Assembly (NCBI GenBank): GCA_016196885.1
Contig: JACPWU010000046.1
Location: 1 to 32,000, forward strand
Length of the DNA stretch: 32,000 nucleotides
Direction of reading: 5' to 3'
Source of the DNA: Chlamydiota bacterium
Lineage (GTDB): Bacteria > Auribacterota > JACPWU01
The position numbers and the translations under genes are program-made. How positions within the stretch are numbered: position 1 is the first letter of the stretch; every line of letters begins with the position of its first letter. Of this stretch, positions 1,375 through 31,326 are shown piece by piece. The notes below the pieces were generated by a model. It was not told the origin of the DNA, made no database searches, and saw only the letters and a list, made by a program, of their open reading frames with translations.

Positions 1375-4300
1375 TTACATGCTTTTTTCCGTCATCTCCG
1401 TCGTTTCACGAAATTTCTGCATCCTATCACGCCAATGGCTTACGCTTGTGAAGGGCGTGACTTGATGCTCGCCCAAATCCACAAGCAACCCTTTTAGCTC
1501 ATCAGCTTTAAAACCATGCTGAAGCAATGCTCGCGTCATTGCTTCGGCATCCCCATAACAAATAGCTGCCATCACGGAAACCATCTCTTGACCGTACATA
1601 AATTTATCAAAGAGCCCTTGAATGGGCTCGTACAAGTTTCTATTTTCACGATGCCCCAGCAGCCACTTTTCCACTTCCTTCCCCTGAAAAAGTTCCCTCA
1701 CTTTTGTATCAACTGCAGCTCTCGCATCCTGCTCATTCAAATCTGTCAGGAAAAGAACTCTATCTTGAGGAATGTGATGTTCCTTGCAAAGGGCATCAAA
1801 CTCTTCTCTAGATCTTTTTCGTTCCACAAAAACCATTTTGCGATTTTCTGTTCCAGATTCTTTAATGAATTCTGTCGGACTCAAGCCCCCCAAACTTTGA
1901 ACCAGTAAATCCATATCGGGGAATAGACACACAGGTTTTTGATCTGCAGATGGTTTTAAGGCCCCTAAAACTTTTTTCTGAAAATGACGAAGCTTTGTTT
2001 TTAATCCCATCAGATAAGCGAGGGCCAAAGATAAATCTTTAGGCCGTGACACTTGAACATGCGTAACACCCAGCGTCTCGGAATTCAATTGCTCAGTCAT
2101 CTCCCCTATTTCCATTTCAGATAACGCACCCTTCGTATCCTGTCTGATAGACCAGGTCACGTCTGAACTGAAATCAAGGGTAACCAAACCCTTCTGAAAC
2201 TCTCCTCTTTCTACCTTTCCTTCAAGCTCTTGTTCAACATTTCTAACTGTTTGATCTAACCCCTCCTCAGCCAGCAATCTCCTAGTCTCTAGCCCAAGAG
2301 AAAGTCTCTGGGCCTTTGCCTGAAAAGCCTTTGCCTGTTCAATAAGATCCGGATGTTTGACTTGGATCATGAGTTCGACCAGTGCAGCATCTAAAACGCT
2401 AAGATCATTTTCTGAGACAGCAAATGAACGTGTCCCCCTTCCCAACGTCCAAAGAATGTCATAAACCGTTTGGCTCTCCATCCACTCTTTGAGCGAAAGT
2501 CCACCCGTTATTTTCTCCTTTGCCCAGGATTCGAAAGAAAAAATTTCTTTCTTCTTCGTAATCAATATTTTGGAAGGAGCCGCACCACGCATAAAGCCAG
2601 GAGAGAGTAAATAGCTACCGTTGGCAAAAATCTTTGCATTCCCTCCGTGGTCTAGAAGCATCGCCTGAACACAACCTTTCTCGGCCGCAAGCTGAGCAAT
2701 TTCCCCAAGTGTCGTTCCTTCTCTGCCAGATTTTCCGCCATTGCCAAGAAGCACAAAACTCCCATCCTGAGTCACCCCAACAACCGTTCTAGGGTAAACT
2801 CCTTCCTTAAGGAAAATATCAATTCCATTCCCTTTAAAAGCAAATTCTCCTTTTCTTCGAACAGCCCCAGCTTCTTTTTCTTGATATCCCATTTTTTCTA
2901 AAAGCTTACGCAACACCTCTTGAGAAACTGCCTTCTCTTGAAACTCAATACGATCTCCCACTCTTAAACCTACTTTTACCTTAAGAGAAAGATGAATCGC
3001 ATGTATCCATGCCTCTTTTGCCGAGGCATAGTCATTTTCTGAAAGCTCAGATACGCCAAAATAGACTTCTCCTCGCGAGACTATTTCACCTTGAACATCA
3101 GAAATATCTTTAATGAAAATTCTAGGCAACTGAAAGACATGCCTTAAATCTTGAAACTGAGGAATAATATTTTCAATATCTTTCCGAGGATTTCCTCCAC
3201 CCTCTAGAAGAAATTGTCCAAACGTTACACCCTCAACTTCATCCGTAATATCCTGCCCCGCCATTAAAACCTGAATGCGAGCATCCTGCTGTGAATAGGT
3301 AACCTCCCCCATCTCAACTTTTCCATCCTTCTTAATCACAAGAGAACTATACGAATGAGCCGTTGGGTTTTCACTGTCTATATGAAAGAGTTGACCCTGA
3401 GTAAAAGTAACAAAACCTTGATTGAAGAAAAGACACGCATTGTCCGCAAAAGCGATCACATGAAGATCTGGATGTTCTGCTTCAAAAACTTTTACAGCTT
3501 CTTCGTCACTCCGTAAATGCTTTACAACTTCCTTAGGATCATTCGTGCGAACACCCCCTGGACCTGTATAAGTAAATGTTTGCGTATCGTGATCTGCAGT
3601 GATACGCCCCTGAAGATCGGCCTGAACAACCACATGCACTGCATACGCTTGAGGATTCACTTGCACCATTGCGATAGGGACCCCATTGGATGTGGCAGTG
3701 GTAGATATTTTAACTGGCTCTTCGACTGGAGAAAGAATAGGTTCTGGAATTCCTGCATTAATAAAAATTTGGAAAAGGGCCTGAGCTTTAGCCTCAGAAG
3801 ATCCAATAATTGCCGCTCTTATTTCAGACTCATTCGTAAATCGCCTCAATTGCTCTAATAAAGACTGAGAACCCCCTTCATGAGCGATTTGCAGCCATGT
3901 TCTAACCTGATTTTCATCGACACGATAATGAATGGGCCAAGGTAGTATATCTTTTAATTCTTTGAGCAATGAGTCCACAGATATTTCACCAACGCCCTTC
4001 CCCGCCATCGCCAAAGGCTTACTAATTTTTTGCGCAATCACCGCATCGTAGAAGCTATGGGCAAGGCCCACCAGCCCAAGAGCAGCTCCTATCGCAATCA
4101 ATGGGCCAAATGCAGTGAGTCCACCTACGAGAACGACATACGCCTGCCGAAGACCCAGGGCGATCACGAAAAGCCAGCCCCAATCTTTCCAAGTGGCCCT
4201 TGCTCCTTTTAACTCCAGTTTTCCATTCTCTCTCACCCACCGTTTCACTTCTGGATGGAACAAGGGAAACATCAAAGCACTGCCCCAAGAGCCCACATAA

Positions 4301-5427: not shown

Positions 5428-5891
5428 AGAGCCTATTTCCTCAAGAAAGTGAAGCCTCGCGATTTTCTGAAGGGTCGGAAGTGAGGCCTCTTTAAGGCAT
5501 CAGGAGCGCCCGAAACAAATCCAAACTGCTCTTTCATCTTCCTAAAATAGGCGCTGCGATCATTATGACCCGTCATACGAGGCGCAATCACCCAATAACC
5601 GATCTTGGCCTCTTTCAATTTCTTCGTAATCCCTTCCGTATGAAACCCACCCACCACAAGCGCTGCACAGGTGAGTTTCTTTTCCTGAATAATTTCAAGA
5701 GACTTCTCGAACATGATTTGGTCTCGCTTCAGAACTTGGGCATAGAATTTTTGGGAGAGGACGAAGATCTCTCCAAAATCTTCAAGAATAGGGGATGATA
5801 GATTATTTGCTTCAGAATTGACTTCTTTTGTTAAGGTCTTCAGACGATAAAGGAAGTCTTTTACATATTCTTCTTCTCTTTGTGAGTCTTT

Positions 5892-6025
5892 CCTCCCCCT
5901 TATTTTTTTAAGGGGGACTGGGGGGGTTAACTCCTCTTCTTTCATAACTCCCCTAACCCCTCTCAAGCTTTTACAAGATTTTATAGTCCCCACGGGATAG
6001 TCCCCTTGGGATATCTTAAGAGGGG
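5892..6025. repeat. multi-hairpin palindromic element lying in frame inside the coding sequence (same family as 27979..28064 and 28326..28426)
   Basis: Hairpins CCCCCTTA-loop-TAAGGGGG, GGGGGTTAA...TAACCCCTC, and CCCCTCT...AGAGGGG. Translated as SPLK...LRGVRGVMKEEELTPPVPLKKIRGRK. Confidence 0.6.
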
Positions 6026-6925: not shown

Positions 6926-6989
6926 GCTGGGGAGCTAGGAGGCTAGAGGACTTCCTCTCCCTAGCTTCCCAGCTTCCTAACTTCCTAGC
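6926..6989. repeat. inverted repeat built from 8-nt units (GCTRGGAG arrays facing CTCCYAGC arrays), inside the coding sequence
   Basis: gctggggagctaggaggctagagga / tcctctccctagcttcccagcttcctaacttcctagc. Equivalent element at 29086..29157. Translated as KLGSWEARERKSSSLLAPQ. Confidence 0.7.
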
Positions 6990-7529
6990 TCTGATTGTCA
7001 TTTCTTCTAATATTTCCAATATCCTTTTGATATTCCCTTGTGCTTCAGCATTACAATGAATGTCTTCAATGATAAAAACATGAGGTTGACCTGGAACTGT
7101 GAATGGGTCTATCACTTCTCCAATGGAGGAAGAAAGGTGAAAAGTCTCAAAAGAAGGTTTTAGCTTCCCATATTTGAGAGAGGACGTTCCCTGAGTAGGA
7201 GTTAGAGTTTTTAGAGGGGTTATAAATTGTGAATCTTAGCCCAACGCATAGGAAAAATCGTAGAACAGAAAGGAAATACAAATAAATAGGCTTATGAACG
7301 ACTGAAGACATCGTTTGCGCCCTTTTTGACAAAGCCTCATAAATCCCCCCAGCCTCAGTGTCCTATTATAAAGACGCAATTGAAGGCTCAAATGCCAAAA
7401 AAATAACGTCAAATTGACCCTTCAGTACCCCTTAAACTCCTATTTTTTACCTAAGTCAAAAAAAGAGTAGACTTTTTTATACTTTGGTATAAACTGTAAG
7501 AGATCGTCGGAAACCTTTGGAAAAGTGAT

Positions 7530-8705
7530 ATGTTTATACGATATTTGGAAAAAGCTATCTTAGAAACTTTGCCCAATAAAATGGTTTTTATTTCGGGACC
7601 CCGTCAAGTGGGTAAAACCACCTTGGCTCGTGAAATTGGGAATCGCCTCTATCACAATAGTCATGCCTATCTTAATTGGGATTACATCGAGGATCGAAGA
7701 ATCATTTCCAAGGGCCTACTTCCAACGGATAAAAAGCTTTTTATCTTTGATGAAATCCACAAATATAAGAATTGGAAAAATTACTTGAAGGGACAATACG
7801 ATAAATACAAAGACACGTTTCGCATCCTTGTTACCGGTAGCGCTAGGCTGGATATTTACAGACGTGGTGGAGACTCGCTTCTCGGACGGTATTATTCCTA
7901 TCGTCTGCATCCATTATCTGTCCATGAGCTTAGCAAAGAAGACGTTCATGTCACACCCATGAAAGAACTCCATTTTATTGAAAGAAATGAACAAGAAAAA
8001 ATTTTTGAAATGCTCCTAAAATTTGGAGGATTCCCGGAAGTTTTCTTTAAACAAAATGAGAAAAATCTTCGCCTTTGGCATCATCAACGCATAGACCGAT
8101 TGGTCAAAGAGGACATTCGAGATGTTGAAAATCTAAGAGACATTTCAGCACTGCAAATTCTGGTAGATATTTTACCCGAAAAAGTGGGTTCTCTCTTTTC
8201 GCTCAACAGCCTCCGAGAAGATTTTAACGTCGCTTATAAAACCATTGCCCTCTGGATGGAGGTGTTGGAAAAATTTTATTATCATTTTCGAATTTATCCC
8301 TATCAGAACACCTTGATTAAATCCCTTCGAAAGGAACCCAAGCTTTATTTATGGGATTGGTCTCAAGTCAAAAACGAAAACGCAAGATTGGAAAATATGG
8401 TAGCCTCTCATCTCTTAAAATTCGTGCACTATCTATCGGATGTTGAAGGGTTTAAAACTCAACTGTCTTATTTAAGAGATAAAGAACAGAGGGAAGTAGA
8501 CTTTATGGTTAGCTTGGACGGGAAACCATGGTTTTGTGTTGAGGTCAAACAAAGTTCAACAGAAGTCCCCAGCTCCTTAAAGTATTTTGCTTCAAAACTT
8601 AAAATCCCTTTTGTTTATCAAGTGACCGGAGAAAAAGATTTTGATTTCATGAAGGACAATGTTCGCATCATTAGCGCATCGAAGTTTTTGAGCGCATTGG
8701 TATAA
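7530..8705 (+). CDS. AAA-family ATPase with a DUF4143-type C-terminal domain
   Basis: Walker A GPRQVGKTT, Walker B LFIFDEIH, ILVTGSARLDIYRRGGDSLLGRYYSYRLHPLS; length 391 aa is typical of the AAA_14/DUF4143 family. Confidence 0.9.
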   Translation: MFIRYLEKAILETLPNKMVFISGPRQVGKTTLAREIGNRLYHNSHAYLNWDYIEDRRIISKGLLPTDKKLFIFDEIHKYKNWKNYLKGQYDKYKDTFRILVTGSARLDIYRRGGDSLLGRYYSYRLHPLSVHELSKEDVHVTPMKELHFIERNEQEKIFEMLLKFGGFPEVFFKQNEKNLRLWHHQRIDRLVKEDIRDVENLRDISALQILVDILPEKVGSLFSLNSLREDFNVAYKTIALWMEVLEKFYYHFRIYPYQNTLIKSLRKEPKLYLWDWSQVKNENARLENMVASHLLKFVHYLSDVEGFKTQLSYLRDKEQREVDFMVSLDGKPWFCVEVKQSSTEVPSSLKYFASKLKIPFVYQVTGEKDFDFMKDNVRIISASKFLSALV

Positions 8706-8728: not shown

Positions 8729-10363
8729 ATGACCCTCTCAAAAAAACATCTTTTTTCACTTCTCTTCATTGTTGTCGTCATCCTGATTGCTTACGCCAAC
8801 AGCTTCCAGAACCACTTTGTTTGGGACGATGACCTGCTCATTGTTCAAAATCAATACCTTCAGAGTCCTCATCACATCTCCAACTTTTTCACAGAAAATA
8901 TTTTTAAGGGTTCAGATCACGAAAGCAATTTTTGGAGGCCTTTACAATTGATCAGTTTCTTCATGGATCAAAAAATCTGGGGAGCAAATGCTTACGGATT
9001 TCATTTAACGAATCTTTTACTGCATATCCTTGCATCCTTAGAGGTTTATCTGTTTATCTTTCTTCTCTTTCGAAGAAAGGGTCTGGCCCTTCTCACCAGC
9101 CTTTTATGGGCCCTACACCCCATTCAAACGGAAGCTGTCACTTATATTTCAGGCCGCGCAGATCCTCTGGCTGCCTACTTCATCCTTTCATCTCTTTGCC
9201 TGTATCTCTATCATCGTCAAAGAGCATCACTTCTTGCCTATCTGGGAAGTCTTATTTCATTTGTTCTTGCTCTTCTCTCCAAAGAAATGGCACTTATGCT
9301 TCCGGTTTATCTTATGCTGTTCGAAACGGTCCTTTATCAAAAGGGAGAAAAAAAATTCTGGAATATTTTTTTAAGATTACTTCCCTTCATCTCAATTGTG
9401 TCACTATATATAAGCCTTCGTCTGACAGTTCTTAACTTCTCAGACAGTCCCCTGATCCAAGATAATCCCTTTCGCCTCATTCCTCTTCCATTAAGACTGC
9501 TCACTTTCACCAAAACCCTTTTTGGCATTTCGTTTAATTCCATCACCCATCACTGGGAAACAGGCTATTTTTGGCTTCTTCTTTTTCCCTTTAATCTTCA
9601 CATGGAAAGAAGCACCGCTTACGCCAAAAGTTTCTTTCAATGGCCCTATCTTTCAACCCTCATCCTTTTTGGAATATGGATATTTGCCCTCTTTCGAACC
9701 TCTCAGAAATCTAAACTTCAATTTTTTGGCCTAACCCTTTTTCTCATCGCCCTTCTGCCTTTTTCAGACCTTATCCCCCTCAACGCAAACATGGCAGAGC
9801 ATTGGCTGTACATTCCTTCTATCGGAATTTTTCTCATCTTGTCTGATTTAGTCTTCCAAGGGTTCAAAAAATATCCAATCACAGTTTCATGCCTTTTCAT
9901 CCCCTATCTCCTCTATCTCGGAACAACAACCTATTTTAGGAATCAAGATTGGAAAGATGAAATGACAATTTGGCAGCAAACGGCAGAACTCTCACAGAGC
10001 TCTCACATCCATGGAAATTTAGCAGTTGCTTATGGCCGGCAAGGAAATCTTCAAAAAGCAGAGAAAGAACTTAAAAAAGCCGTCGCACTACAATTTAATT
10101 ATCCCGAGGCCCACAACAATCTCGGGCTCCTTTATATTGCCAAAGGAAATTTAACGGAAGCTCTCCAAGAATTTTCCTGGGCCATTCAATTTAATCCCAC
10201 CTATTCCAATGCCTATAAAAATCTGGGAGACGTTTATGAGGCCATGAACAATTTAGACGAAGCAAAGAAAATGTGGAAAAAAGCACTTGAAATCAATCCA
10301 ATGAATGAAGGAGCGAAGGAAAAACTAAAAAAATCATCTCACCAACCCCTCTCCACCACCTAA
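8729..10363 (+). CDS. polytopic membrane protein with C-terminal TPR repeats (TMTC/PMT-like glycosyltransferase family)
   Basis: N-terminal FVWDDDLLIVQN ... FWRPLQLISFFMD ... HLTNLLLHIL ... HPIQTEAVTYISGRADPLA with many TM segments. C-terminal TPR units (AEKELKKAVALQFNYPEAHNNLGLLYIAKGNLTEA...). Confidence 0.8.
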   Translation: MTLSKKHLFSLLFIVVVILIAYANSFQNHFVWDDDLLIVQNQYLQSPHHISNFFTENIFKGSDHESNFWRPLQLISFFMDQKIWGANAYGFHLTNLLLHILASLEVYLFIFLLFRRKGLALLTSLLWALHPIQTEAVTYISGRADPLAAYFILSSLCLYLYHRQRASLLAYLGSLISFVLALLSKEMALMLPVYLMLFETVLYQKGEKKFWNIFLRLLPFISIVSLYISLRLTVLNFSDSPLIQDNPFRLIPLPLRLLTFTKTLFGISFNSITHHWETGYFWLLLFPFNLHMERSTAYAKSFFQWPYLSTLILFGIWIFALFRTSQKSKLQFFGLTLFLIALLPFSDLIPLNANMAEHWLYIPSIGIFLILSDLVFQGFKKYPITVSCLFIPYLLYLGTTTYFRNQDWKDEMTIWQQTAELSQSSHIHGNLAVAYGRQGNLQKAEKELKKAVALQFNYPEAHNNLGLLYIAKGNLTEALQEFSWAIQFNPTYSNAYKNLGDVYEAMNNLDEAKKMWKKALEINPMNEGAKEKLKKSSHQPLSTT

Positions 10364-10494
10364 GGCGGGTGGCACGACTGGGGGTCCCCTGCTAACGCCA
10401 GCAGGTCGAGACTTACGTCCCAAAAGTTCTAAACGAAAAACCACCAACGAGACCGATGCCGTTAGTGGGGGTGAGGAGGGACAGGACCCGCCTT
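10362..10494. ncRNA. candidate structured RNA / conserved repeat element, copy A (short form)
   Basis: Shares four conserved blocks with 16595..16790: GGCMCGACTGGGGGTCCC, GCCAGCAGGTMGAG, ACCGATGCCGT, GGGTGAGGAGGGACAGGMCC. Closing stem AAGGCGGGT/ACCCGCCTT. Inner stem CTAACG (10392-97) / CGTTAG (10460-65). It fills the gap between two convergent stop codons. Strand not determined. Confidence 0.45.
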
Positions 10495-10496
10495 CC

Positions 10497-11303
10497 CTAC
10501 ATATTCACGCACCGATGCGTTTTCTGAGGAATGTCACGATGATGGATAATGCGATTTCGGCCCTCTTCTTTCGCCATGTAAAGCGCCTCATCGGCCTGGC
10601 GCAAAAGTTCATCCGCATCCAAGGCATCTGAAGGGCAGGTTGCAATCCCTCCGCTCACCGTCACATGCACAATCTCCTTCGAGCCAGGGATCAAAAACTC
10701 TTGAGTTTTAATATGAACTCTCAAACGGTCTGCGACTTCCATGGCCACACGCCCCAATGTTTGAGACATCACCACTACAAATTCTTCCCCCCCAAAACGA
10801 GCGACCAAATCCGCCCCCCTTGAATAACACGATAAAATCTTCGCAATTCTCTGAAGCACACGATCCCCCACCAAATGCCCCCACTTGTCGTTCAGGCGTT
10901 TGAAATGATCCACATCCAGAAACAACAATGAAAAGGCGAGCGGATAACGGCGGCTCTTGTCAAATTCCTTTTCCAGATAATCCTTCAAGAAACGCCGGTT
11001 GTAAAGACCTGTGAGGGAATCTCGGATGGCGCAATCTTGAGTCCTGCGATACTGATCTCTTTCAATGAGCACAGGCCCACGGATTTTACGCACACGGTTC
11101 ATAAAATAATCGGCGAGGGCAACGGTAAAACCCACAGGACGGCTTAAAGCTTCTTCCAACTGCTTCTGATGGCTGAGGATCGAATACCAGTGCTGTTCGG
11201 CTTCTTCTTCGCTGAGGGTCAGGCTGCAGAATTGACTTAAAAGAGTCTTAAAACTCCTTTTCATCATATCCCCCCTTTTCGTTAGTCGTTCGTTATTCGT
11301 CAT
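10497..11303 (-). CDS. diguanylate cyclase (GGDEF domain, with an RxxD I-site)
   Basis: RFGGEEFVVVM active-site motif, with RGAD five residues upstream (I-site), and LDVDHFKRLNDKWGH. The first 12 codons (MTNNERLTKRGD) come from a heptamer repeat array. The more likely start is ATG 11267 (MMKRSF), preceded by AAAAGGGGGG. Confidence 0.9.
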   Translation of the reverse strand: MTNNERLTKRGDMMKRSFKTLLSQFCSLTLSEEEAEQHWYSILSHQKQLEEALSRPVGFTVALADYFMNRVRKIRGPVLIERDQYRRTQDCAIRDSLTGLYNRRFLKDYLEKEFDKSRRYPLAFSLLFLDVDHFKRLNDKWGHLVGDRVLQRIAKILSCYSRGADLVARFGGEEFVVVMSQTLGRVAMEVADRLRVHIKTQEFLIPGSKEIVHVTVSGGIATCPSDALDADELLRQADEALYMAKEEGRNRIIHHRDIPQKTHRCVNM

Positions 11304-11364
11304 GAGTCGTTAGTTAAAAAATTATGTGTTTCTACTAACGACAAACGACTATAAACTAACGACT
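11280..11364. repeat. hairpin made of two facing arrays of 7-nt units (cgttagt-type / actaacg-type)
   Basis: Left arm cgttagt cgttcgt tattcgt catgagt cgttagt (11280-11314). Right arm actaacg acaaacg actataa actaacg act (11334-11364). It lies between the mraZ stop and the GGDEF start. Confidence 0.75.
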
Positions 11365-11369
11365 GTTTT

Positions 11370-11813
11370 TTAAATCGAGAACCCTACACTCTTTTCTGCA
11401 ATTCCTTTGGAGGTCTCGCGTATTTTCTTGGACTCTCGATTCCACTCCTCCTGATCCCAAATTTCAATCCGGTGGCGAACCCCCACCATAAAAATCCCGT
11501 CCTTTAACTGAGCATACTCCCTCAGATTTTTGGGAACGAGCATTCTTCCCTGTGGATCCACAGGACATTCACTGGCATTGGCAAAGAGAAATCGTTCAAG
11601 CCGGCGGGCATCTTCGTGACTGTTCTGAAGGGTCTCCACCTCATTGGCAAACTTCTCCCAGCGAGGTCTGGAGTAAATGTAAAGGCATTTTTCGAATCCT
11701 ATGGTCATGATCGGATGTTTCGTTGTCCCGCTGTACAGTTCCTCCCGCATCTTGGCTGGAACGCTGATTCGGTCTCTGGTGTCAATGCGATGTTCAAACG
11801 TCCCTAGAAACAT
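11370..11813 (-). CDS. mraZ: transcriptional regulator MraZ
   Basis: MFLGTFEHRIDTRDRISVPAKMREEL plus a second half with VDPQGRMLVPKNLREYA (duplicated SpoVT/AbrB-type MraZ repeats). 147 aa. Confidence 0.9.
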   Translation of the reverse strand: MFLGTFEHRIDTRDRISVPAKMREELYSGTTKHPIMTIGFEKCLYIYSRPRWEKFANEVETLQNSHEDARRLERFLFANASECPVDPQGRMLVPKNLREYAQLKDGIFMVGVRHRIEIWDQEEWNRESKKIRETSKGIAEKSVGFSI

Positions 11814-11856: not shown

Positions 11857-11885
11857 ATTCTAGGGATAAGCGAGCTCCGTGTCAA
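11857..11885 (-). promoter_or_regulatory. near-consensus sigma70 promoter of mraZ (TTGACA-17 nt-TAGAAT)
   Basis: Reverse complement of 11880-11885 is TTGACA. The spacer 11863-11879 is 17 nt. Reverse complement of 11857-11862 is TAGAAT. Confidence 0.55.
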
Positions 11886-11929
11886 TAGAAAAAAATGAAA
11901 AAAATAGGGGCAAGCAGCAAGGAGAGCAT

Positions 11930-11988
11930 TGTAGTCGCCCCATTTATGGGGCCGTCTATGGATTTGCCCGATGAATCGGGCGACTACA
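11930..11988. repeat. REP-like double-hairpin element, copy 1
   Basis: Perfect 10-nt terminal inverted repeat TGTAGTCGCC/GGCGACTACA enclosing hairpins CCCCATTTATGGGG and GCCCGATGAATCGGGC. The reverse complement matches 16521..16567 apart from a ~12-nt internal indel. Confidence 0.85.
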
Positions 11989-14637: not shown

Positions 14638-14653
14638 AATCTTCATTAAAATC

Positions 14654-14780
14654 CGAAGCACGAAATCCGAAATTCGAAACAAACTCTAAAACCCAAATTC
14701 AAAATTCTAAACGTTTTGACTCTTTAAATATTTGAATTTTGAATTTGTTTCAGATTTCGATATTAGGATTTCGTGCTTTT
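14654..14780. repeat. long imperfect inverted repeat built from 7-nt units, between the recA stop and the alaS start
   Basis: Left arm cgaagca cgaaatc cgaaatt cgaaaca (14654-14681) plus ttcaaaattc. Right arm gaattttgaa, then tgtttca gatttcg atattag gatttcg tgctttt (14746-14780). The arms are mutually complementary. Confidence 0.75.
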
Positions 14781-15830
14781 TTAGGGTTTCAACCCTGCTT
14801 TTTCTTTTATCTCTTTCACAATCTGCTGCATCAAGGGCTTATTTTGCTTTAAGAGATCACGTGCCTGATCTCGGCCTTGGCCCAATTTTTCATTCTTATA
14901 AGCAAACCAGGCCCCCTTCTTTTCGATGACACCCAAAAGAGCGCCCACGTCTACGACCGTCCCCTCACGGGATATCCCTTCTCCAAAGATAATGTCAAAT
15001 TCCGCTTCTCTGAAAGGAGGCGCGACTTTGTTTTTTACAACCTTCACGTTCACATGATTTCCAACGGGGATTCCCTTGGCATCTTTAATTGAACCCGTCC
15101 GGCGAATATCCAGCCGAACAGAAGAATAAAATTTCAAGGCTCTTCCGCCCGGTGTTGTCTCAGGATTGCCAAACATGACACCAATTTTTTCCCGAAGCTG
15201 ATTGATAAAAATAGCGCAGGTTCTGGATTTACTAATCGAGGCGGTCAGTTTTCTCATGGCCTGACTCATAAGCCTCGCTTGAAGCCCCATGTGACTGTCG
15301 CCAATATCTCCCTCAATCTCCGCTTTAGGAACGAGTGCAGCAACCGAATCCACAACCACCACATCCAGGGCATTGGAACGAACCAAAACCTCAACAATGT
15401 TCAAAGCGTCCTCTCCACAATCCGGCTGAGACACCAAAAGATTTTCTATATCCACACCTAAGGCCTTGGCATATCCTGAATCCATGGCATGCTCAGCGTC
15501 CACAAAAGCTGCGCGTCCCCCAGCCTTCTGAGCATTCGCAACAATTTGAAGCGCCAAAGTTGTTTTACCCGAAGATTCAGGACCAAAAATTTCAACCACA
15601 CGACCCCGAGGAACGCCTCCGATCCCCAAGGCAATATCCAAGGACAAAGCACCCGTTGAAATCGAAGAAACAGGAACAATCGGTTGATTGGCCCCCAAAC
15701 GCATAATCGCCCCTTGACCAAATTGCTTTTCAATTTGCGAAAGCGCGACATCCAAAGCCTTATCCCGCCCCGTATCCTTCGCCACCTCTTTTTGCTTCTC
15801 TTGCTTTTCCTGAACGGCTGATTCTGCCAT
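14781..15830 (-). CDS. recA: recombinase RecA
   Basis: [22 protein letters not shown], Walker [26 protein letters not shown]. Start set at ATG 15830 (MAESAVQ), with AAGGAG 7 nt upstream. The longer track ORF would overlap thpR. Confidence 0.97.
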
Positions 15831-16412: not shown

Positions 16413-16447
16413 CCGTATATCGTTGTTCGTCATCCGTCGTCCGTATA
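16413..16447. repeat. array of five imperfect 7-nt units immediately 5' of the thpR start
   Basis: ccgtata tcgttgt tcgtcat ccgtcgt ccgtata. It ends 7 nt from the ATG at 16405. Confidence 0.7.
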
Positions 16448-16520
16448 CTCTACCCCAATAATTTCAATGATCTTTCAAGATCATCGTATACGATAAAAGT
16501 TCTCCCCATCATGCTTTTTT

Positions 16521-16567
16521 TGTAGTCGCCCGATTCATCGGGCAGCCCCATAAATGGGGCGACTACA
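16521..16567. repeat. REP-like double-hairpin element, copy 2 (inverted relative to copy 1)
   Basis: TGTAGTCGCC-CGATTCATCGGGC-A-GCCCCATAAATGGGGC-GACTACA. Same termini and both hairpins as 11930..11988 in the opposite orientation. Confidence 0.85.
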
Positions 16568-16594
16568 AAATGAGCCTCACTTTCATAACAAAAT

Positions 16595-16790
16595 AAGCGA
16601 GTGGCCCGACTGGGGGTCCCCCATTGAGCGCCAGCAGGTAGAGGCAAATAACTTTCAATTTCTATCAACAACAAATTCGATACCGATGCCGTCTCAGCAT
16701 AAGGAAAAAAACATCTACTATCGCAGTCGGCCCTTTTTCTGCCACAGGCAGCGGGCCTCCTTTGCTGGGTGAGGAGGGACAGGCCCCACT
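16595..16790. ncRNA. candidate structured RNA / conserved repeat element, copy B (long form with a ~70-nt extra segment)
   Basis: Same four conserved blocks as 10362..10494. Inner stem TGAGCG (16625-30) / CGTCTCA (16690-96) differs from copy A but stays complementary. The element abuts the cinA stop codon. Confidence 0.45.
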
Positions 16791-18998: not shown

Positions 18999-19774
18999 AT
19001 CGTCGTGAGTCGTGAGTCGTGAGTCGTGAGTTGATTGTTCTTAGATTCAAAAATTCTAAATTGGCATAATTTAAATTTTTGGAGCATATACTGTACCAAT
19101 GTCAACAAAACCCGACATCCGTAAATGATGCTTCTTTTAAGATTAATAGAGGAAGCTTCTTTCATATAGCGAACAGGCACAGGAATATCTCCGATGCGAA
19201 ATCCAAAATACACACATTGAGCTAAAAACTGGGCATCAAAAGCATAATCATTCGAATTATTTTCAAAGGGAATTGTTTCTAACACTTTTCGTGTATAGGC
19301 TCGCAAACCACTGTGTCCATCTCCCATATTCTGCCCCAAAATCACATTCATCACAAAGGTTAAAAAGCGATTCGCAAAATATTTATAGACAGGCATCCCT
19401 CCCTGCAAAGTTTCTTCACGGGTTCGAATCCGATTGCCCAACACCACATCGCACACCCCCGTTTGGAGAAATCCTGCAATGTAGGGAACCAGGCGACTGT
19501 CGTATTGATAATCCGGGTGAATCATCACCACCACATCCGCGCCTCGCTTCAAGGCCTCTTCGTAACATGTCTTTTGATTGCCCCCATAGCCGCGATTTTT
19601 CGAATGAGTGATGACCGTCAACCCTAGATGTTTGGCAATTTCAACAGTCTGACCTCCACTGGCATCATCCACCAAGATTATTTCTGAATAAGACCCCTTC
19701 GGAATATCTCGAAATGTTTTTTCTAAAGTTTTTTCCGCATGATAGGCGGGCATGACGATGATGATTTTACTCAT
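18995..19774 (-). CDS. family 2 glycosyltransferase
   Basis: [16 protein letters not shown] ... [13 protein letters not shown] ... NRGYGGNQK. The C-terminal tail ([11 protein letters not shown]) is encoded by a 7-nt tandem repeat. Confidence 0.9.
19004..19031. repeat. perfect tandem repeat (cgtgagt) x4
   Basis: Read directly. It lies 5 nt upstream of the epimerase ATG and inside the last codons of the GT2 gene. Confidence 0.9.
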
Positions 19775-19776
19775 TA

Positions 19777-19902
19777 AAACCTCTCAAAAAGGTCCCAGAG
19801 GGAAGCGCGCCCGCGAGCGACCGCGGAGGCGTACGTTTTCGAGTACGCCGCACAAGGGAGCGAAGTGGGCAACGCCGCAGATGGGCCTTTTTCAGAGGTT
19901 TT
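19777..19902. other. long GC-rich imperfect hairpin filling the whole mnmA-GT2 intergenic space
   Basis: Outer arms aaaacctctcaaaaaggtccca (19777-19798) and tgggcctttttcagaggtttt (19882-19902). Inner hairpin ggcgtac-gttttcga-gtacgcc (19828-19849). The local GC content is far above that of the flanks. Confidence 0.5.
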
Positions 19903-21007
19903 ATTCAATGAATCCTCCGCCCAACACCTGATCCCCATCATAAAAGACAGCCGCCTGCCCAGGCGTTACTGCTTTTTCTGGACTCAACAATTGGACCTGT
20001 GCGTGACTCTCATCCAAAAACGAAACGGTCACTCTCGCCCCTTCATGCATACTTCGAATTTTCACAGTACATTCCACAAGGTCTTTTGGTTTTTGATTTG
20101 AGATCCAATGTGTGTCTTTTGTCCTAAATCCTGAAACATAAAGGTCTTTTTCTTCTCCCACAATCACGGTGTTTGTTTTTCCATCTAAAGCCACTACATA
20201 CGCAGGATGTCCAAATGCAATCCCCAACCCTTTTCTCTGGCCAATGGTAAAATTCTGAATGCCTTCATGCGTTCCAATCATATTTCCAGCCATGTCTTTC
20301 ATAGGCCCTTTTTGAAACTCACCGGGGACCGCCTTCTTCAAGAAGTTGACATATTTTCCATCCGGTACAAAACAAATCTCCTGGCTGTCTGATTTATCGA
20401 AAACTTTAAGCCCTGCTTTTTTGGCCAATTCACGACTTTCAGATTTTGTCCTATTTCCCAAAGGAAAATAAAGTTTGGAAAGCTTGCCTTGAGTCAGGGT
20501 ATAAAGAAAATAGGACTGATCTTTCTTTAAATCCTTTCCCTTACGTAAAATAAATTCTCCTTTTTTTTCTTCTACATTGGCATAGTGGCCTGTCGCTAAT
20601 TTCCAAGCTCCTAATTTTTCAGCAAATTCAAGCATGCTTCCAAATTTTAATTTCCGATTGCACACAACACAAGGATTGGGGGTTCTCCCCTCACGATATT
20701 CATTACAAAAATAATCAATGACATTTTCTTGAAAAGCCTCTTTGTGATCAATCACATAAAAAGGAATGCCCAATTGATAGGCCACAGACCGACCATCTTC
20801 CACCGCTCGAGGCCCACAGCAGGCATGTTCTCCTGTATCCGAGCAATCCCCAAGCCAAACTTTGAGTGTGATCCCAATCACCTCATAGCCCTGCTCTTTT
20901 AGAAGCAAAGCCGCAACACTGGAATCCACTCCACCGCTCATGCCAACGACAATGCGAAGCGATTTTGGATTTTGGATTTTGGATTTTGGATTTAACGATT
21001 CCATCAT
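19901..21007 (-). CDS. mnmA: tRNA 2-thiouridine(34) synthase MnmA
   Basis: PP-loop VVGMSGGVDSSVAALLL, CCGPRAVEDGRSVA, GHYA. The start overlaps the stop of the upstream cysteine desulfurase gene. Confidence 0.95.
   Translation of the reverse strand: MMESLNPKSKIQNPKSLRIVVGMSGGVDSSVAALLLKEQGYEVIGITLKVWLGDCSDTGEHACCGPRAVEDGRSVAYQLGIPFYVIDHKEAFQENVIDYFCNEYREGRTPNPCVVCNRKLKFGSMLEFAEKLGAWKLATGHYANVEEKKGEFILRKGKDLKKDQSYFLYTLTQGKLSKLYFPLGNRTKSESRELAKKAGLKVFDKSDSQEICFVPDGKYVNFLKKAVPGEFQKGPMKDMAGNMIGTHEGIQNFTIGQRKGLGIAFGHPAYVVALDGKTNTVIVGEEKDLYVSGFRTKDTHWISNQKPKDLVECTVKIRSMHEGARVTVSFLDESHAQVQLLSPEKAVTPGQAAVFYDGDQVLGGGFIE
20961..20993. repeat. tandem repeat (gattttg) x4.7 inside the first codons of mnmA
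   Basis: Read directly. Translated as NPKSKIQNPKS. Confidence 0.9.
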
Positions 21008-27523: not shown

Positions 27524-29442
27524 TGATCAAATTCTTGAGAAGAAAGATTAGCCTTCTGAAGCATTTTTTCTCCTAGGCCTTCCATTACTTCATAAAATCC
27601 CTCTTTCGATGGCTCTTCTATAAATTCATTAAATTCTTTCATTTTTTGAAAATAAACGCGGCGATCATCTATTTTTTCTGAATGGGGGGCAATGACGCAG
27701 TAGCCCATCTCAGCTTCTTTTAATTTTTCTTTGAGGGCATCTGTATGAAAACCTCCGACGACGACAGCGGCATTTTGAAGTTTCTTTTCTTTGATCTCTT
27801 GAGAAAGTTTCTGATAGAAAATTTTGTCTCGATCAAGCACTTTTTTGTAAAACTTTTTGGCGGTCTGGAAGATGTTTTCAAAGTCAGGGGATTCGAAAGA
27901 GAGGTTATTTTCTTCGCACAACTTTCTTAAGGCTTGAGAAAAGTTTATTACGTACTCTTCTTCTCTTTGTGAGTTTTTCCTCCCCCTTATTTTTTTAAGG
28001 GGGATTGAGGGGGTTACTTCCTCCTCTTTCATAACTCCCCTAACCCCTCTTAACTTAAGAGGGGAACGAAGGCCACTCCATATAGCTTTTAAATCTTCTC
28101 TCTTTCCCTCCATCGATATCACTCGCTTCAAAACAGTGTAATCATTTTCAAGCTTCAGCAGTCTCTTGATTTCCTTTTCATTTCCTTTTCCCCTGTACGC
28201 TGAACGCTCTACGCTGCCCGCTAATTTTTCAACCTCTGAGTCCAATTTTTCCCATGAGATTTTTTTCATAAGGGACATCTGCTCGATAAAAAATTTGAGA
28301 TTGGGATAGAGTTCTTTTTGTTTTTCCCTCCCCTTAATATAAGGGGAGCCGGTGGGGTTATTGACTTCTTCCATAACTCCCCCTACCCCTAACTCCCCAG
28401 GCCCCTCTTTAAAAAAAAGAGGGGGGACGTTCTCTTCATGTTCTGGTTCTAGATATTTACTTAAGAAAAGATAATGCGCTTCATCCCCAATTCTCCCCAA
28501 ACGATGTTCCAGCACATTTTTCATCACTTCGTTAAGTTCTTCTTTCGTCAACTGTTTCTCTAATGTTTGAAGAAATGAAAGATATTCGCTTTCGACTCTC
28601 GACATATCTGTTTTCTTCTCAAGAGTTTGAAGTTTTAAATAAAGACTTATTTGAGGAAAATCCTCTTCTAACTTCAAACCTCTAACATTTAACTGCTGTA
28701 GATATTCCCCCATTCCAATTTTGAAATCTTCATATTGCTTCTTTTTTTTCATCAACTCTAAAAGTTCTTGAGGATAAATTTTTTCTCTCAAACTTTGAAA
28801 CAATTCTTCCAAATCGCTCCACACATGCTCTTGAAGTTCTCGCTCTTCCATCAATTCATTCATGAGTTTTACATTCTCAAGATAGGGCTGAAGTTCTTCA
28901 ACGCCCAAACCGATTGCTCCACCAGTTTTTTCTCCCATTAAAAAGGACTCCACGCCATTGATGTCTCTATCCTGAATGAACTGATCTTGAACCAAAGGCA
29001 GTATTTCTTTTTTTGGAAAAGCTGTAAAAAAACTCATGTCCATCCATCCCGTCGCAGCCTCGGAAAAAACACAAAAAGACTGGCTGGAAAGCTGGGAGGC
29101 TAGGAGGCTGGGAGAAAGCTTTTGCTGTTTAGCTTCCCAGCTCCCCAGCTTCCTAGCATCTTTTGTTTCTTCCTTCAACACCTTCAATATCCTCGCTATG
29201 TTCCTCTCAACCTCTGGATTACAATGAATATCCTCAATTAAGAAGACGGTAGGATTCCCCGATAAAAGCACTTGATCTGTGATTTCTCCCATATCTGCAG
29301 GGATTGGGTTGGAATTCAAGAACATGTCCGGCTGGGAGGGGAGATAAGTCTTAATTGCTTGATGTGGAATGGGTTGTGAATAAGGCTCTATTTGTTGACT
29401 CCAACTTGGTTGAATATCATAAGAGACAAAGCAAAGACACAA
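27442..29442 (-). CDS. Tiki/TraB/ChaN-superfamily protein (intact paralog of 5433..7332)
   Basis: N-terminal VFLIEDIHCNPEVERNIARIL (ChaN/erythromycin-esterase-type GE-H-N motif). C-terminal LDRDKIFYQKL...AAVVVGGFHTDALKEKLKEAEMGYCVIAP (TraB/GumN-type motif). The track start is TTG. An ATG at 29470 with a hydrophobic leader lies one frame off. Confidence 0.75.
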   Translation of the reverse strand: MCLCFVSYDIQPSWSQQIEPYSQPIPHQAIKTYLPSQPDMFLNSNPIPADMGEITDQVLLSGNPTVFLIEDIHCNPEVERNIARILKVLKEETKDARKLGSWEAKQQKLSPSLLASQLSSQSFCVFSEAATGWMDMSFFTAFPKKEILPLVQDQFIQDRDINGVESFLMGEKTGGAIGLGVEELQPYLENVKLMNELMEERELQEHVWSDLEELFQSLREKIYPQELLELMKKKKQYEDFKIGMGEYLQQLNVRGLKLEEDFPQISLYLKLQTLEKKTDMSRVESEYLSFLQTLEKQLTKEELNEVMKNVLEHRLGRIGDEAHYLFLSKYLEPEHEENVPPLFFKEGPGELGVGGVMEEVNNPTGSPYIKGREKQKELYPNLKFFIEQMSLMKKISWEKLDSEVEKLAGSVERSAYRGKGNEKEIKRLLKLENDYTVLKRVISMEGKREDLKAIWSGLRSPLKLRGVRGVMKEEEVTPSIPLKKIRGRKNSQREEEYVINFSQALRKLCEENNLSFESPDFENIFQTAKKFYKKVLDRDKIFYQKLSQEIKEKKLQNAAVVVGGFHTDALKEKLKEAEMGYCVIAPHSEKIDDRRVYFQKMKEFNEFIEEPSKEGFYEVMEGLGEKMLQKANLSSQEFDQWEKSVPSLKPVIQALKKNMGIRQAPF
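27979..28064. repeat. multi-hairpin palindromic element in frame within the CDS (family copy)
   Basis: cctcccccttatttttttaaggggg / gagggggtta...ctaacccctc / cccctcttaacttaagagggg. Translated as SPLKLRGVRGVMKEEEVTPSIPLKKIRGRK. Confidence 0.65.
28195..28222. repeat. array of four 7-nt units inside the CDS
   Basis: gtacgct gaacgct ctacgct gcccgct. Translated as AGSVERSAYRG. The paralog has unrelated sequence at this position. Confidence 0.6.
28326..28426. repeat. multi-hairpin palindromic element in frame within the CDS, absent from the paralog
   Basis: ccctccccttaatataagggga ... ggtggggtta...ccctacccct ... cccctctttaaaaaaaagagggggg. It corresponds to a ~36-40 aa insertion (NVPPLFFKEGPGELGVGGVMEEVNNPTGSPYIKGREK) relative to the 350-aa paralog fragment. 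Confidence 0.7.
29086..29157. repeat. inverted repeat of 8-nt units in frame within the CDS
   Basis: gctgggag gctaggag gctgggag - aaagcttttgctgttt - agcttccc agctcccc agcttcct agc. Translated as KLGSWEAKQQKLSPSLLASQLSSQ. Confidence 0.75.
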
Positions 29443-29675
29443 AATGACACTGATGAGTTTTTGAACTCATTTCATAAAAATGTCTTTACCTCTATAAAAA
29501 TTCATAACTTATTTATATACAAAAAGATACGACATTATTATTTTTTAAAAAACAAGGCCGCACGAGATTATCATTCAATGAGAATAGACATTTTATGAAG
29601 GGGAAAGGTCAAAGGAGAAAAAATGTGATTTTGGATTTTAAATAGGATAGAATGACTCTTAGTAAGGAGTTTTTC

Positions 29676-29966
29676 ATGCCTCTCTACGAGTTTCTCAAGA
29701 AAAGAAGAAATGACATCCTTCAAGCTGCTCTGCGACATGGGGCAAAAAACGTACGCTTGTTTGGCTCGGTTACACGTAAAGAAGAAAATACCCAAAGTGA
29801 CATTGACCTTCTCGTCGAAATGGAAAAAGGGAGAAGTTATCTTGACTTAGTTGAGTTATGGCAAGAATTAGAGGAACTTCTTGGGAAGAAAGTAGACCTT
29901 CTGACAGACGGAGGGATCAGTCCTTATTTAAAAGATCGCATTTACTCTGAAGCCATTCCCTTATGA
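29676..29966 (+). CDS. mntA: nucleotidyltransferase antitoxin (MntA type)
   Basis: RLFGSVTRKEENTQSDIDLLVEM (GS-x10-DxD). Start set at ATG 29676, preceded by AAGGAG at a 6-nt spacing (the track start 29652 is also possible). The stop overlaps the hepT start (ATGA). Confidence 0.85.
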   Translation: MPLYEFLKKRRNDILQAALRHGAKNVRLFGSVTRKEENTQSDIDLLVEMEKGRSYLDLVELWQELEELLGKKVDLLTDGGISPYLKDRIYSEAIPL

Positions 29967-30292
29967 AGGACAACTCCCTTTATCTTCTGCATATTCGAGA
30001 CGCACTCGATCTCATCCTGGAATATGCTTCTTCAGGGAAAGAGTTTTTCATGCAAGATAAGAAAACTCAAGATGCAATCATTCGCAATCTTGAAATTCTT
30101 GGAGAAGCAACGAAAAATATCCAGGAAGATTTTAGACAAGTGCATTCAGAAATTCCTTGGAAGGCTTTGGCCGGAATGAGAGATAAACTAGCCCATGATT
30201 ATTTTGGCGTTAATCTTGAGATTGTATGGGAAGTTGTGGACAAAAGAATTCAAGAACTTAAGGAAAAGATTAATAACCTTTTAAACAACTGA
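29963..30292 (+). CDS. hepT: HEPN/DUF86 toxin (HepT type)
   Basis: 109 aa with the Rx4HxY motif (MRDKLAHDYFG) and the typical IIRNLEILGEA segment. Confidence 0.88.
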   Translation: MKDNSLYLLHIRDALDLILEYASSGKEFFMQDKKTQDAIIRNLEILGEATKNIQEDFRQVHSEIPWKALAGMRDKLAHDYFGVNLEIVWEVVDKRIQELKEKINNLLNN

Positions 30293-31296: not shown

Positions 31297-31326
31297 AGCG
31301 TACAGCGATCAGCGTTCAGCGGTCAG
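31297..31326. repeat. array of four imperfect 7-nt units 5' of the coaX start
   Basis: agcgtac agcgatc agcgttc agcggtc ag. Located in the 73-nt birA-coaX spacer. Confidence 0.7.

Follow-up and report, generated by a model that had tools for sequence, protein, structure and literature searches.

Heptamer arrays in a run of minus-strand genes

The stretch of DNA considered here, 32,000 nt of contig JACPWU010000046.1 (hereafter the window), carries nine short arrays of tandem heptanucleotides in and between genes of its minus strand, and these arrays, with their origin and possible function, are our subject. Public gene calls for the region were those of NCBI contig JACOUD010000031.1 (GCA_016178005.1), whose coordinates are the same as those of the window and which encodes a protein identical to the AlaS of the window. 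Together with Pfam matches they give, in order, GGDEF, mraZ, alaS, recA, thpR/LigT, cinA, epimerase, GT2 and mnmA genes, continuing after mnmA with a class-V aminotransferase gene, genes for two large hypothetical proteins, coaX and a biotin ligase gene, all on the minus strand. The nearest homologs of the encoded AlaS are 71–74% identical and include that of a 'Chlamydiae bacterium' metagenome-assembled genome (MAG; 74%), and the next, at ~53%, come from Candidatus Theseobacter, Ancaeobacter, Erginobacter and Euphemobacter, which are genera of Candidatus Auribacterota. By these homologs the host is an uncultured lineage of the Planctomycetes-Verrucomicrobia-Chlamydiae (PVC) group; a cyanobacterial host was ruled out by the same homologs. 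Every array listed in an initial annotation, which had been made from the letters alone, is present where it had been placed:

11280 to 11314, minus strand: array reading ACTAACG ACTCATG ACGAATA ACGAACG ACTAACG in mRNA sense (plus strand CGTTAGT-type, near Nostoc class II NNTGAGT); 3' arm of a hairpin, 12 nt from the GGDEF ATG at 11267, with a G-rich Shine-Dalgarno sequence between
11334 to 11364, minus strand: inverted partner of the preceding array and 5' arm of the hairpin, beginning ~5 nt past the mraZ stop
14649 to 14713, minus strand: heptamers of AAATCCG / AAATTCA type on the plus strand; one arm of a ~130-nt hairpin in the recA-alaS spacer
14723 to 14780, minus strand: TTTGAAT / GGATTTC-type units, including one exact class I unit, TAGGATT; the complementary arm, adjoining the recA stop
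16413 to 16447, minus strand: plus-strand CGTATAT CGTTGTT CGTCATC CGTCGTC CGTATAC; direct array before thpR/LigT, CGT fixed in 5/5 units
19002 to 19031, minus strand: perfect array (GTCGTGA)x4.3, or CGTGAGT x4, encoding the C-terminal tail of the GT2 protein
20961 to 20993, minus strand: perfect array (GATTTTG)x4.7, or TTGGATT x4; 33 nt, 11 codons, inside the mnmA frame
28195 to 28222, minus strand: plus-strand CTGTACG CTGAACG CTCTACG CTGCCCG, family GNACGCT, imperfect; interior of a 666-aa coding sequence (CDS)
31297 to 31326, minus strand: plus-strand AGCGTAC AGCGATC AGCGTTC AGCGGTC, imperfect; in the 73-nt biotin ligase-coaX spacer, opposite in orientation to the array at 28195

The window thus holds head-to-tail 7-nt units in at least three copies, which is what defines a heptanucleotide long simple sequence repeat (SSR) or an array of the type known as short tandemly repeated repetitive sequences (STRRs). 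The units fall into at least three families, in keeping with the initial annotation's remark that their sequence differs between arrays. Tandem Repeats Finder (TRF) reported two perfect period-7 arrays (19002–19031 and 20961–20993) and two imperfect ones (14649–14679 and 31297–31326), so that perfect and degenerate arrays stand side by side. To count arrays by a uniform rule, a column test was used in which at least 4 of 7 columns must be invariant over 4 consecutive units. By this test the window has six period-7 loci, whereas 30 shuffles of it that preserve dinucleotides have 0.1 on average and never more than 1. The arrays at 11280–11314 and 16413–16447 are weaker; they fail this four-column test, yet are visible by eye, and 11279–11314 scores on lag-7 identity.

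No locus was found in the window at periods 5, 6 or 9–11 by the column test, and four were found at period 8 (0.13 in shuffles). Octamer arrays of the CTTCCCAG / GGCTGGGA family lie at 6957–6992 and 29080–29168, far above chance. The second set, inside the 666-aa CDS, looks like an insertion into the gene, because its array at 29125–29168 occupies the position of an 18-residue gap in the homolog from L082, a close relative described below.

The density of period-7 arrays is far above that of unrelated loci. There are 18.8 arrays per 100 kb in the window and 47 in its sister MAG L081, compared with 1.8 in a control set of 80 unrelated alaS loci (1.34 Mb; AlaS identity at most 49% among the matches listed). 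The window is thus ~10 times, and the two array-rich genomes are 10–25 times, as dense as unrelated loci, the sampled sequence being 32 kb (window) and 17 kb (L081) and not whole genomes.

Six of the nine listed arrays are intergenic, though non-coding sequence makes up only ~10% of the window. The initial annotation had put the arrays mostly just 5' of start codons, and this is right for five of them, which end 3–17 nt from a start; three arrays (20961, 19002 and 28195), the one before the epimerase gene among them, lie within coding sequences. The start distances it gave for the five genes (5–18 nt) are borne out: 12 nt for GGDEF, 7 or 16 nt for alaS (ATG 14646 or ATG 14637), 7 nt for thpR/LigT, which has no evident Shine-Dalgarno sequence, 3–5 nt for the epimerase gene, whose ATG overlaps the GT2 stop (ATGA), and 17 nt for coaX (ATG), with AAGGA between. 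Arrays adjoin start codons because they make up much of the spacers that hold them, and we regard this closeness as largely a consequence of arrays filling short spacers.

The three coding arrays sit at a protein N-terminus, at a C-terminus and in a poorly conserved interior, a pattern of tolerance. The N-terminal one is in frame, with the mnmA ATG at 21007 on one side and the conserved RIVVGMSGG on the other; this ATG shares ATGA with the stop of the aminotransferase gene upstream. A homolog of 68% identity lacks the array-encoded extension and has only four residues there. The public call instead begins mnmA at the internal Met of GMSGG (ATG 20941), so that the conserved RIVVG strand is lost, and the sole in-frame alternative past the array is an ATT codon. 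The start is likely ATG 21007, with the array translated as MMESLNPKSKIQNPKSL. The interior array, at 28195–28222, encodes AGSVERSAYRG in a poorly conserved stretch of the 666-aa protein, on both sides of which the homolog in a relative aligns.

Hairpins and array turnover among relatives

Facing arrays fold into long imperfect hairpins that nearly fill their spacers, and folding bears out the two long intercistronic hairpins that had been described at the outset. The mraZ>GGDEF hairpin (11278–11366) has a folding energy of -30.8 kcal/mol (z -5.4) and the recA>alaS hairpin one of -44.8 kcal/mol (z -6.4). Direct arrays, on the other hand, are less structured than their shuffles, with z of +0.6 (thpR), +2.1 (epimerase) and +1.5 (coaX). 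An Rfam search of the window gave no intron and no other known RNA family. A simple terminator scan of the window listed neither long hairpin, because its loop and stem limits exclude hairpins of this length. On the plus strand, antisense to the genes, each hairpin has a T6 run behind it (11364–11372 and 14778–14786), which in the mRNA is an A-run directly past the TAA stop of mraZ or recA; as antisense transcripts, both hairpins look like strong intrinsic terminators.

Had selection acted on the hairpins as RNA, G.U pairs would be expected to stabilise the sense transcript over the antisense. In a set of 17 hairpins drawn from four genomes, however, the sense strand was the more stable in only 8, with a mean difference of +1.0 kcal/mol, and the hairpins have no strand-specific fold.

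Close relatives differ sharply in whether they carry arrays. L081 (GCA_016178055.1) has eight in 17 kb, all eight intergenic and most in facing pairs, whereas L082, L084, L085 and L086 (49 kb in all, AlaS identity 71–74%) have none by the column test. Where both flanking genes are present in these array-free relatives, the junctions overlap or measure 18–55 nt, except for a mraZ-GGDEF spacer of 190 nt in L085; the window has 384 nt between cinA and thpR and 143 nt between recA and alaS. Both array-rich genomes carry arrays at mraZ>GGDEF, at cinA>LigT and downstream of recA, with different unit families in each, and behind the mraZ>GGDEF hairpin the two have kept a G-rich Shine-Dalgarno sequence. 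Since about half or more of the longer spacers hold arrays in both genomes, coincidence at three junctions is expected and gives no evidence of positional conservation. At orthologous sites, whose comparison the initial annotation had proposed, units are replaced at shared junctions, and four of the five close relatives are without arrays.

This turnover was seen only between relatives ~74% identical in AlaS. When the flanks of the 19002 array were searched with a spacer of N{9,39} for copy-number variants among strains, no other contig matched. At mraZ>GGDEF, L085 retains a decayed version of the L081 element. Two L081 hairpins (1500–1632 and 9259–9378) and the L085 hairpin at 4092–4270 share the non-periodic segments AAATCCAAAAATCAAAAT, AAAATGACA ... 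TTGTCATTTTGA, a hint that whole hairpin elements may have spread or undergone gene conversion. A further L081 hairpin (15675–15757) has a T-run behind it on the sense strand.

Known repeat systems and other phyla

To our knowledge, the role of heptanucleotide arrays of the STRR kind has been unresolved since about 1990, and discussion of them has hardly gone beyond cyanobacteria, Beggiatoaceae and Xanthomonas. In the strict sense reportedly given by Mazel and co-workers in 1990, the host of STRRs is a heterocystous cyanobacterium, and the AlaS relatives of the window are not cyanobacterial. The STRR units of that work are said to be CCCCAGT and CAACAGT, which CCACAGT and CAACGGT of L081 resemble. 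The arrays described here are like cyanobacterial STRRs in being short tandem 7-nt arrays of several families per genome, mostly intergenic, with inverted pairs forming hairpins; they are unlike them in their host, an uncultured PVC-group bacterium rather than a heterocystous cyanobacterium, and in their shortness (4–5 units). Cyanobacterial STRRs have 7-bp units and form hairpins between genes, as between hupS and hupL; their function is unknown, with transcript stability or translational coupling put forward as speculation (PMC2670836).

A closer match of sequence is found in Nostoc, where the P6b stem of the tRNA-Leu(UAA) intron is built from class I TDNGATT or class II NNTGAGT heptamers and one class has repeatedly replaced the other over the whole stem (PMC4476775). 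The two perfect window arrays are exact instances of these classes, TTGGATT x4 of class I and CGTGAGT x4 of class II. (TDNGATT)x3 begins at 20965 and (NNTGAGT)x3 at 19004, and neither pattern has a match in the 1.34 Mb of control loci. However, since the match was noticed post hoc and several heptamer families are known, we estimate the probability of chance agreement at only about 1e-2 to 1e-3. As in P6b, the stem consists of an array facing its complement, variable positions stand beside a fixed core, and one class is swapped for the other at the same site (the window compared with L081 at mraZ>GGDEF). Unlike P6b, the window arrays are in operon spacers and CDS ends and not in a group I intron.

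Repeats in two other groups bear comparison. The TAACTGA repeats of Beggiatoaceae occur in 2–6 copies, stop a few nucleotides short of start codons that often have no Shine-Dalgarno sequence, are predicted to be unstructured, in some cases overlap the end of the upstream open reading frame (ORF), occur in ribosomal protein operons and have a patchy phylogenetic distribution (MacGregor 2015, PMC4679880). The window arrays share the placement (ends 3–17 nt from five starts) and the lack of structure in direct arrays. But in Beggiatoaceae a single unit, mostly perfect, dominates, with a strong preference for one orientation and with inverted pairs almost absent, whereas the window has at least three families, mostly imperfect, in both orientations and with frequent hairpin pairs. 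Related Xanthomonas strains have heptamer arrays at the same gene junctions, with wide variation in length and sequence (Rehm et al. 2015, PMC4692102). The GGGNATC / GGGGAYT repeats of Xanthomonas and Nostoc are likewise intergenic, and the class I-like TGGGATT and TTGGATT are close to GGGGATT, though the window arrays are too G-poor for quadruplexes. As far as the work of Mrazek (2007) is represented in later papers (PMC4679880, PMC4692102), no other long SSRs are as over-represented in many bacteria as heptamers, and slippage of the polymerase is their proposed cause.

The same unit classes and the same architecture recur in other phyla. A metagenome scan for (TCGTKAG)x3 matched at least 120 contigs, from which 80 loci of 34–69% G+C were kept. 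They hold 45.6 period-7 arrays per 100 kb, six class I arrays among them, and array proneness is a trait of whole genomes. The matches to TCGTKAG cannot themselves be read as special, because a shuffled control, (TGCTKGA)x3, is commoner than TCGTKAG in viral contigs (32 matches vs 12). Four of the contigs could be attributed through 90%-identity protein clusters, to Candidatus Yanofskybacteria, Pyrinomonadaceae/Blastocatellia, Chloroflexota and Terriglobales, the exact protein giving the name only for Yanofskybacteria and Terriglobales and other members of the same cluster giving it for the other two. In an acidobacterial contig (L157, 1634–5367), every spacer over a few bases in tuf-rpsJ-rplC-rplD-rplW-rplB-rpsS-rplV-rpsC contains a facing heptamer pair, with TTGGATT / ATTTGGG units, mostly class I-like and one CGTGAGT, and a 3' arm adjoining the next gene. 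Facing pairs also occupy every spacer over a few bases in the rpsK-rpsD region of the Candidatus Yanofskybacteria contig (L098, 9589–11372). The operon that holds the L157 hairpins is highly expressed, so they at least do no harm there.

Within the control set, a Deltaproteobacteria MAG contig of 55% G+C (L004) carries six nGTnACT arrays with a fixed core and drifting positions, at 50–138, 8582–8661 and 10054–10340, and L012, L017 and L079 have 2–3 arrays each. HIP1 counts are low in related metagenome loci. An 'NNNNAGT' super-family uniting STRR1/3, class II, TAACTGA and the L081 units was considered and rejected, the metagenome count being confounded by the family searched for and the controls showing no preference for AGT.

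The window has further features outside the heptamer arrays. A 113-nt direct repeat, 90% identical (5854–5966 and 27941–28053), lies inside hypothetical CDSs of 350 aa and 666 aa and suggests paralogous domains in the two proteins; these and the adjacent 1570-aa protein have no Pfam match. At 29652–30292 on the plus strand, overlapping genes encode an MNT-like nucleotidyltransferase and a HepT-like RNase, as is typical of HepT/MNT toxin-antitoxin pairs. Upstream of mraZ, at 11857–11885 on the minus strand, a spacer without a heptamer array has a near match to the sigma-70-type promoter consensus (TTGACA, 17 nt, TAGAAT; 11/12).

Origin and possible roles of the arrays

We think it probable that the arrays are heptanucleotide SSRs of the STRR or long-SSR kind, born by slippage, that occupy spacers and permissive gene ends. 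They would be created and remodelled most likely by replication slippage, and facing pairs could arise by inverted duplication. In array-prone genomes, arrays may then accumulate wherever extra sequence is tolerated, namely in the transcribed spacers of co-directional genes, at extreme N- and C-termini of CDSs and in variable protein segments. Placement where tolerated, relatives without arrays, unit turnover and the coexistence of perfect and decayed arrays (of which we read the perfect as recent and the degenerate as old) all argue for such a colonisation of permissive transcribed sequence. Their effects would be passive: a direct array would leave the mRNA unstructured directly 5' of where the ribosome binds, and an inverted pair would leave a long imperfect hairpin between cistrons of a polycistronic mRNA. 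Any use of such leaders or hairpins might lie in transcript stability, processing or independent translation initiation, as speculated for cyanobacterial STRRs, and the arrays would not be read by a sequence-specific oligomeric regulator. The initial annotation had offered lineage-specific slippage products serving as intergenic hairpins as a second possibility. The slippage and hairpin part of this fits our results, but the arrays are not lineage-specific: unit families and paired-array hairpins also occur in contigs attributed to Acidobacteriota, Chloroflexota and Candidatus Yanofskybacteria, and the units match Nostoc classes.

Several points weigh against this interpretation. Five arrays end as close as 3–17 nt to a start codon, and alaS, thpR and the epimerase gene have no obvious Shine-Dalgarno sequence, which fits a role in initiation as well. 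Direct arrays are less structured than shuffles, and the sense units ACUCACG, ACUAACG and AAAUCCA have a folding energy of 0.0 kcal/mol when their complements reach -2 to -8 kcal/mol. In the longest array (L081 16979–17065, 12 units), mismatches are concentrated in 2–3 columns (p = 0.0008). This could reflect selection on a core, although duplication of variant units could mimic it; outside that array, column-specific conservation of a 'fixed core' was not significant, the selection of arrays being partly circular. Moreover, class I and class II units co-occur in Nostoc, in the window MAG and in the acidobacterial contig, which pure random slippage does not predict, and hairpins take up each of the longer spacers in the tuf-S10 ribosomal protein cluster of L157. 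CpG is ~3-fold enriched in the window arrays, which is left without explanation, and the flank search gave no copy-number variants that would show slippage.

Some of these points are what one would expect if the arrays were cis-acting mRNA elements for translation initiation, and we rank this, beside a dispersal of hairpins like that of palindromic elements, as the main alternative. Unstructured heptad platforms 5' of the start would serve as standby or enhancer sites, and might be bound in register by single-stranded RNA binders with a ~7-nt footprint, such as cold-shock-domain proteins or ribosomal protein S1. The footprint of a cold-shock domain is ~7 nt. In addition to the start distances, the missing Shine-Dalgarno sequences, the positive z of direct arrays and the units that fold only as complements, 8 of 17 same-orientation arrays in the metagenome loci end 4–8 nt from a putative start. 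Such a role has been proposed for the TAACTGA repeats of Beggiatoaceae, which have the same placement and lack of structure (PMC4679880). On the other hand, ~32% of random heptamers are equally unstructured, which makes the folding test a weak one, and the units differ between arrays. The initial annotation had suggested that strand bias be looked for, and orientation is not fixed. The AGCGTNC / GNACGCT family occurs both ways within minus-strand genes (28195 and 31297), and when arrays lying at most 60 nt before putative starts are counted in the 80 metagenome loci, 17 have one orientation and 12 the other, a difference that under a crude ORF-based gene model is not significant. Furthermore, arrays also lie within CDSs and as 5' hairpin arms by stop codons, and relatives have the same genes without arrays. 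We consider an initiation element unlikely, if still deserving of attention.

For the paired arrays, one could suppose repetitive extragenic palindromic (REP) elements, bacterial interspersed mosaic elements (BIMEs) or palindromes like miniature inverted-repeat transposable elements (MITEs), spread by transposition or gene conversion and acting between cistrons as mRNA stabilisers, RNase III sites or terminators. Two L081 hairpins and the L085 mraZ-GGDEF spacer do share segments that go beyond heptamer iteration, the mraZ>GGDEF hairpin is found in three lineages with a different unit class in the window, and replacement of the class over a whole stem is documented for the Nostoc trnL P6b (PMC4476775). 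The hairpins are also stable (z -5 to -9), and the T-run past the L081 hairpin at 15675–15757 lies in the sense direction. However, apart from the arrays themselves we saw no terminal inverted repeats, nor was there any transposase or target-site duplication; no consensus is common to the hairpins within a genome, and those of the window share no such segments. Many arrays are single and direct. The window hairpins lack a sense 3' U-run, their T6 runs being antisense, and the 17 hairpins compared show none of the G.U asymmetry expected of selected RNA. Such an origin of the pairs seems to us improbable.

Palindromes of another kind do occur in the window. G+C-rich palindromic repeats are dispersed in its A+T-rich spacers (11929–11988 / 16513–16575; 10365–10389 / 16597–16621; 19790–19900), with TTGTAGTCGCCCCATTTATGGGGC and its complement and GCGGGTGGCACGACTGGGGGTCCCC (in 92% identical copies) as examples, and upstream of the GT2 gene there is a G+C-rich hairpin with AAAAA/TTTTT on its flanks. 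These repeats look like a second family, similar to REP elements.

A further possibility is that the perfect arrays are contingency loci for phase variation, in which a gain or loss of 7 nt would shift the mnmA frame, or the GT2 tail together with its stop/start overlap with the epimerase gene. The arrays at 20961–20993 and 19002–19031 are 100% perfect, lie in reading frames and have a unit that is not a multiple of 3. But the neighbours mnmA, recA, alaS and coaX are housekeeping and not surface or virulence genes, most arrays are intergenic and imperfect, and hence stable, and the flank search for the 19002 array yielded no copy-number variants, all of which makes contingency loci very improbable.

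The initial annotation had also stressed a CpG held at a fixed phase of the heptamer, which raises the possibility of a role at the level of DNA, with phased CpG sites for a methyltransferase, a nucleoid protein, an iteron-like binder or another DNA-binding or DNA-modifying protein. The CpG frequency is 0.117 in the arrays vs 0.036 in the window (3.3-fold), and six of the nine arrays have about one CpG per unit, which is the part of that observation that stands; an absent sense/antisense asymmetry of folding is compatible with a feature of the DNA. In the 11280 array, however, the invariant columns are T..GT rather than CpG, and in L081, where most arrays have no CpG, the phase is not kept. 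The CpG phase holds only for the window genome, and it is foreign to class I arrays. Moreover, the CpG contexts differ (TCGT, AGCG, CCGA), and a 7-bp period does not hold sites on one face of the helix. We find a DNA-level role hard to credit.

The initial annotation had thought first of sites of the HutP type; HutP is known mainly from Bacillus and relatives. That an oligomeric regulator such as HutP or TRAP binds the arrays in RNA is scarcely tenable, since they resemble HutP sites of the Bacillus hut operon only in the 7-nt period (a triplet plus N4), class II arrays read GAG-N4 / TAG-N4 only on the plus strand, antisense to the genes, the mRNA-sense units (ACUCACG, ACUAACG, AAAUCCA, GAnCGCU, GAyGACG, UUUCGGA) differ between sites and have neither a NAG-N4 series nor a common triplet at a fixed phase, two sets of three triplets with a spacer upstream of a terminator/antiterminator are absent, the window has no hutP-like gene by Pfam, and arrays occur in both orientations and in several phyla, three of them here translated, when four of five relatives have none.

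Thus, what is new here is a host lineage in the PVC group for a known kind of repeat, and the host range of heptamer arrays is widened to this group and to acidobacterial and Candidatus Yanofskybacteria contigs. The PVC-group window combines direct arrays abutting start codons with intercistronic hairpins, in TTGGATT and CGTGAGT classes, and has a sister with replaced units at the same junctions; array-bearing and array-free relatives with the same gene order offer compact natural comparisons. For annotation, heptamer arrays should not be taken for regulator binding sites, and they can mislead the calling of start codons, as for mnmA, called from an internal Met.

We speculate, with considerable doubt, that intercistronic hairpins of facing arrays built from a small shared repertoire of units (TDNGATT, NNTGAGT and relatives) may constitute one widespread and unrecognised class of operon-internal elements, which would span Nostocales, PVC-group MAGs, Acidobacteriota and Candidatus Yanofskybacteria. 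If so, what underlies them would be one generating mechanism, or one trans-acting partner, shared by all these lineages, and not random slippage occurring separately in each.

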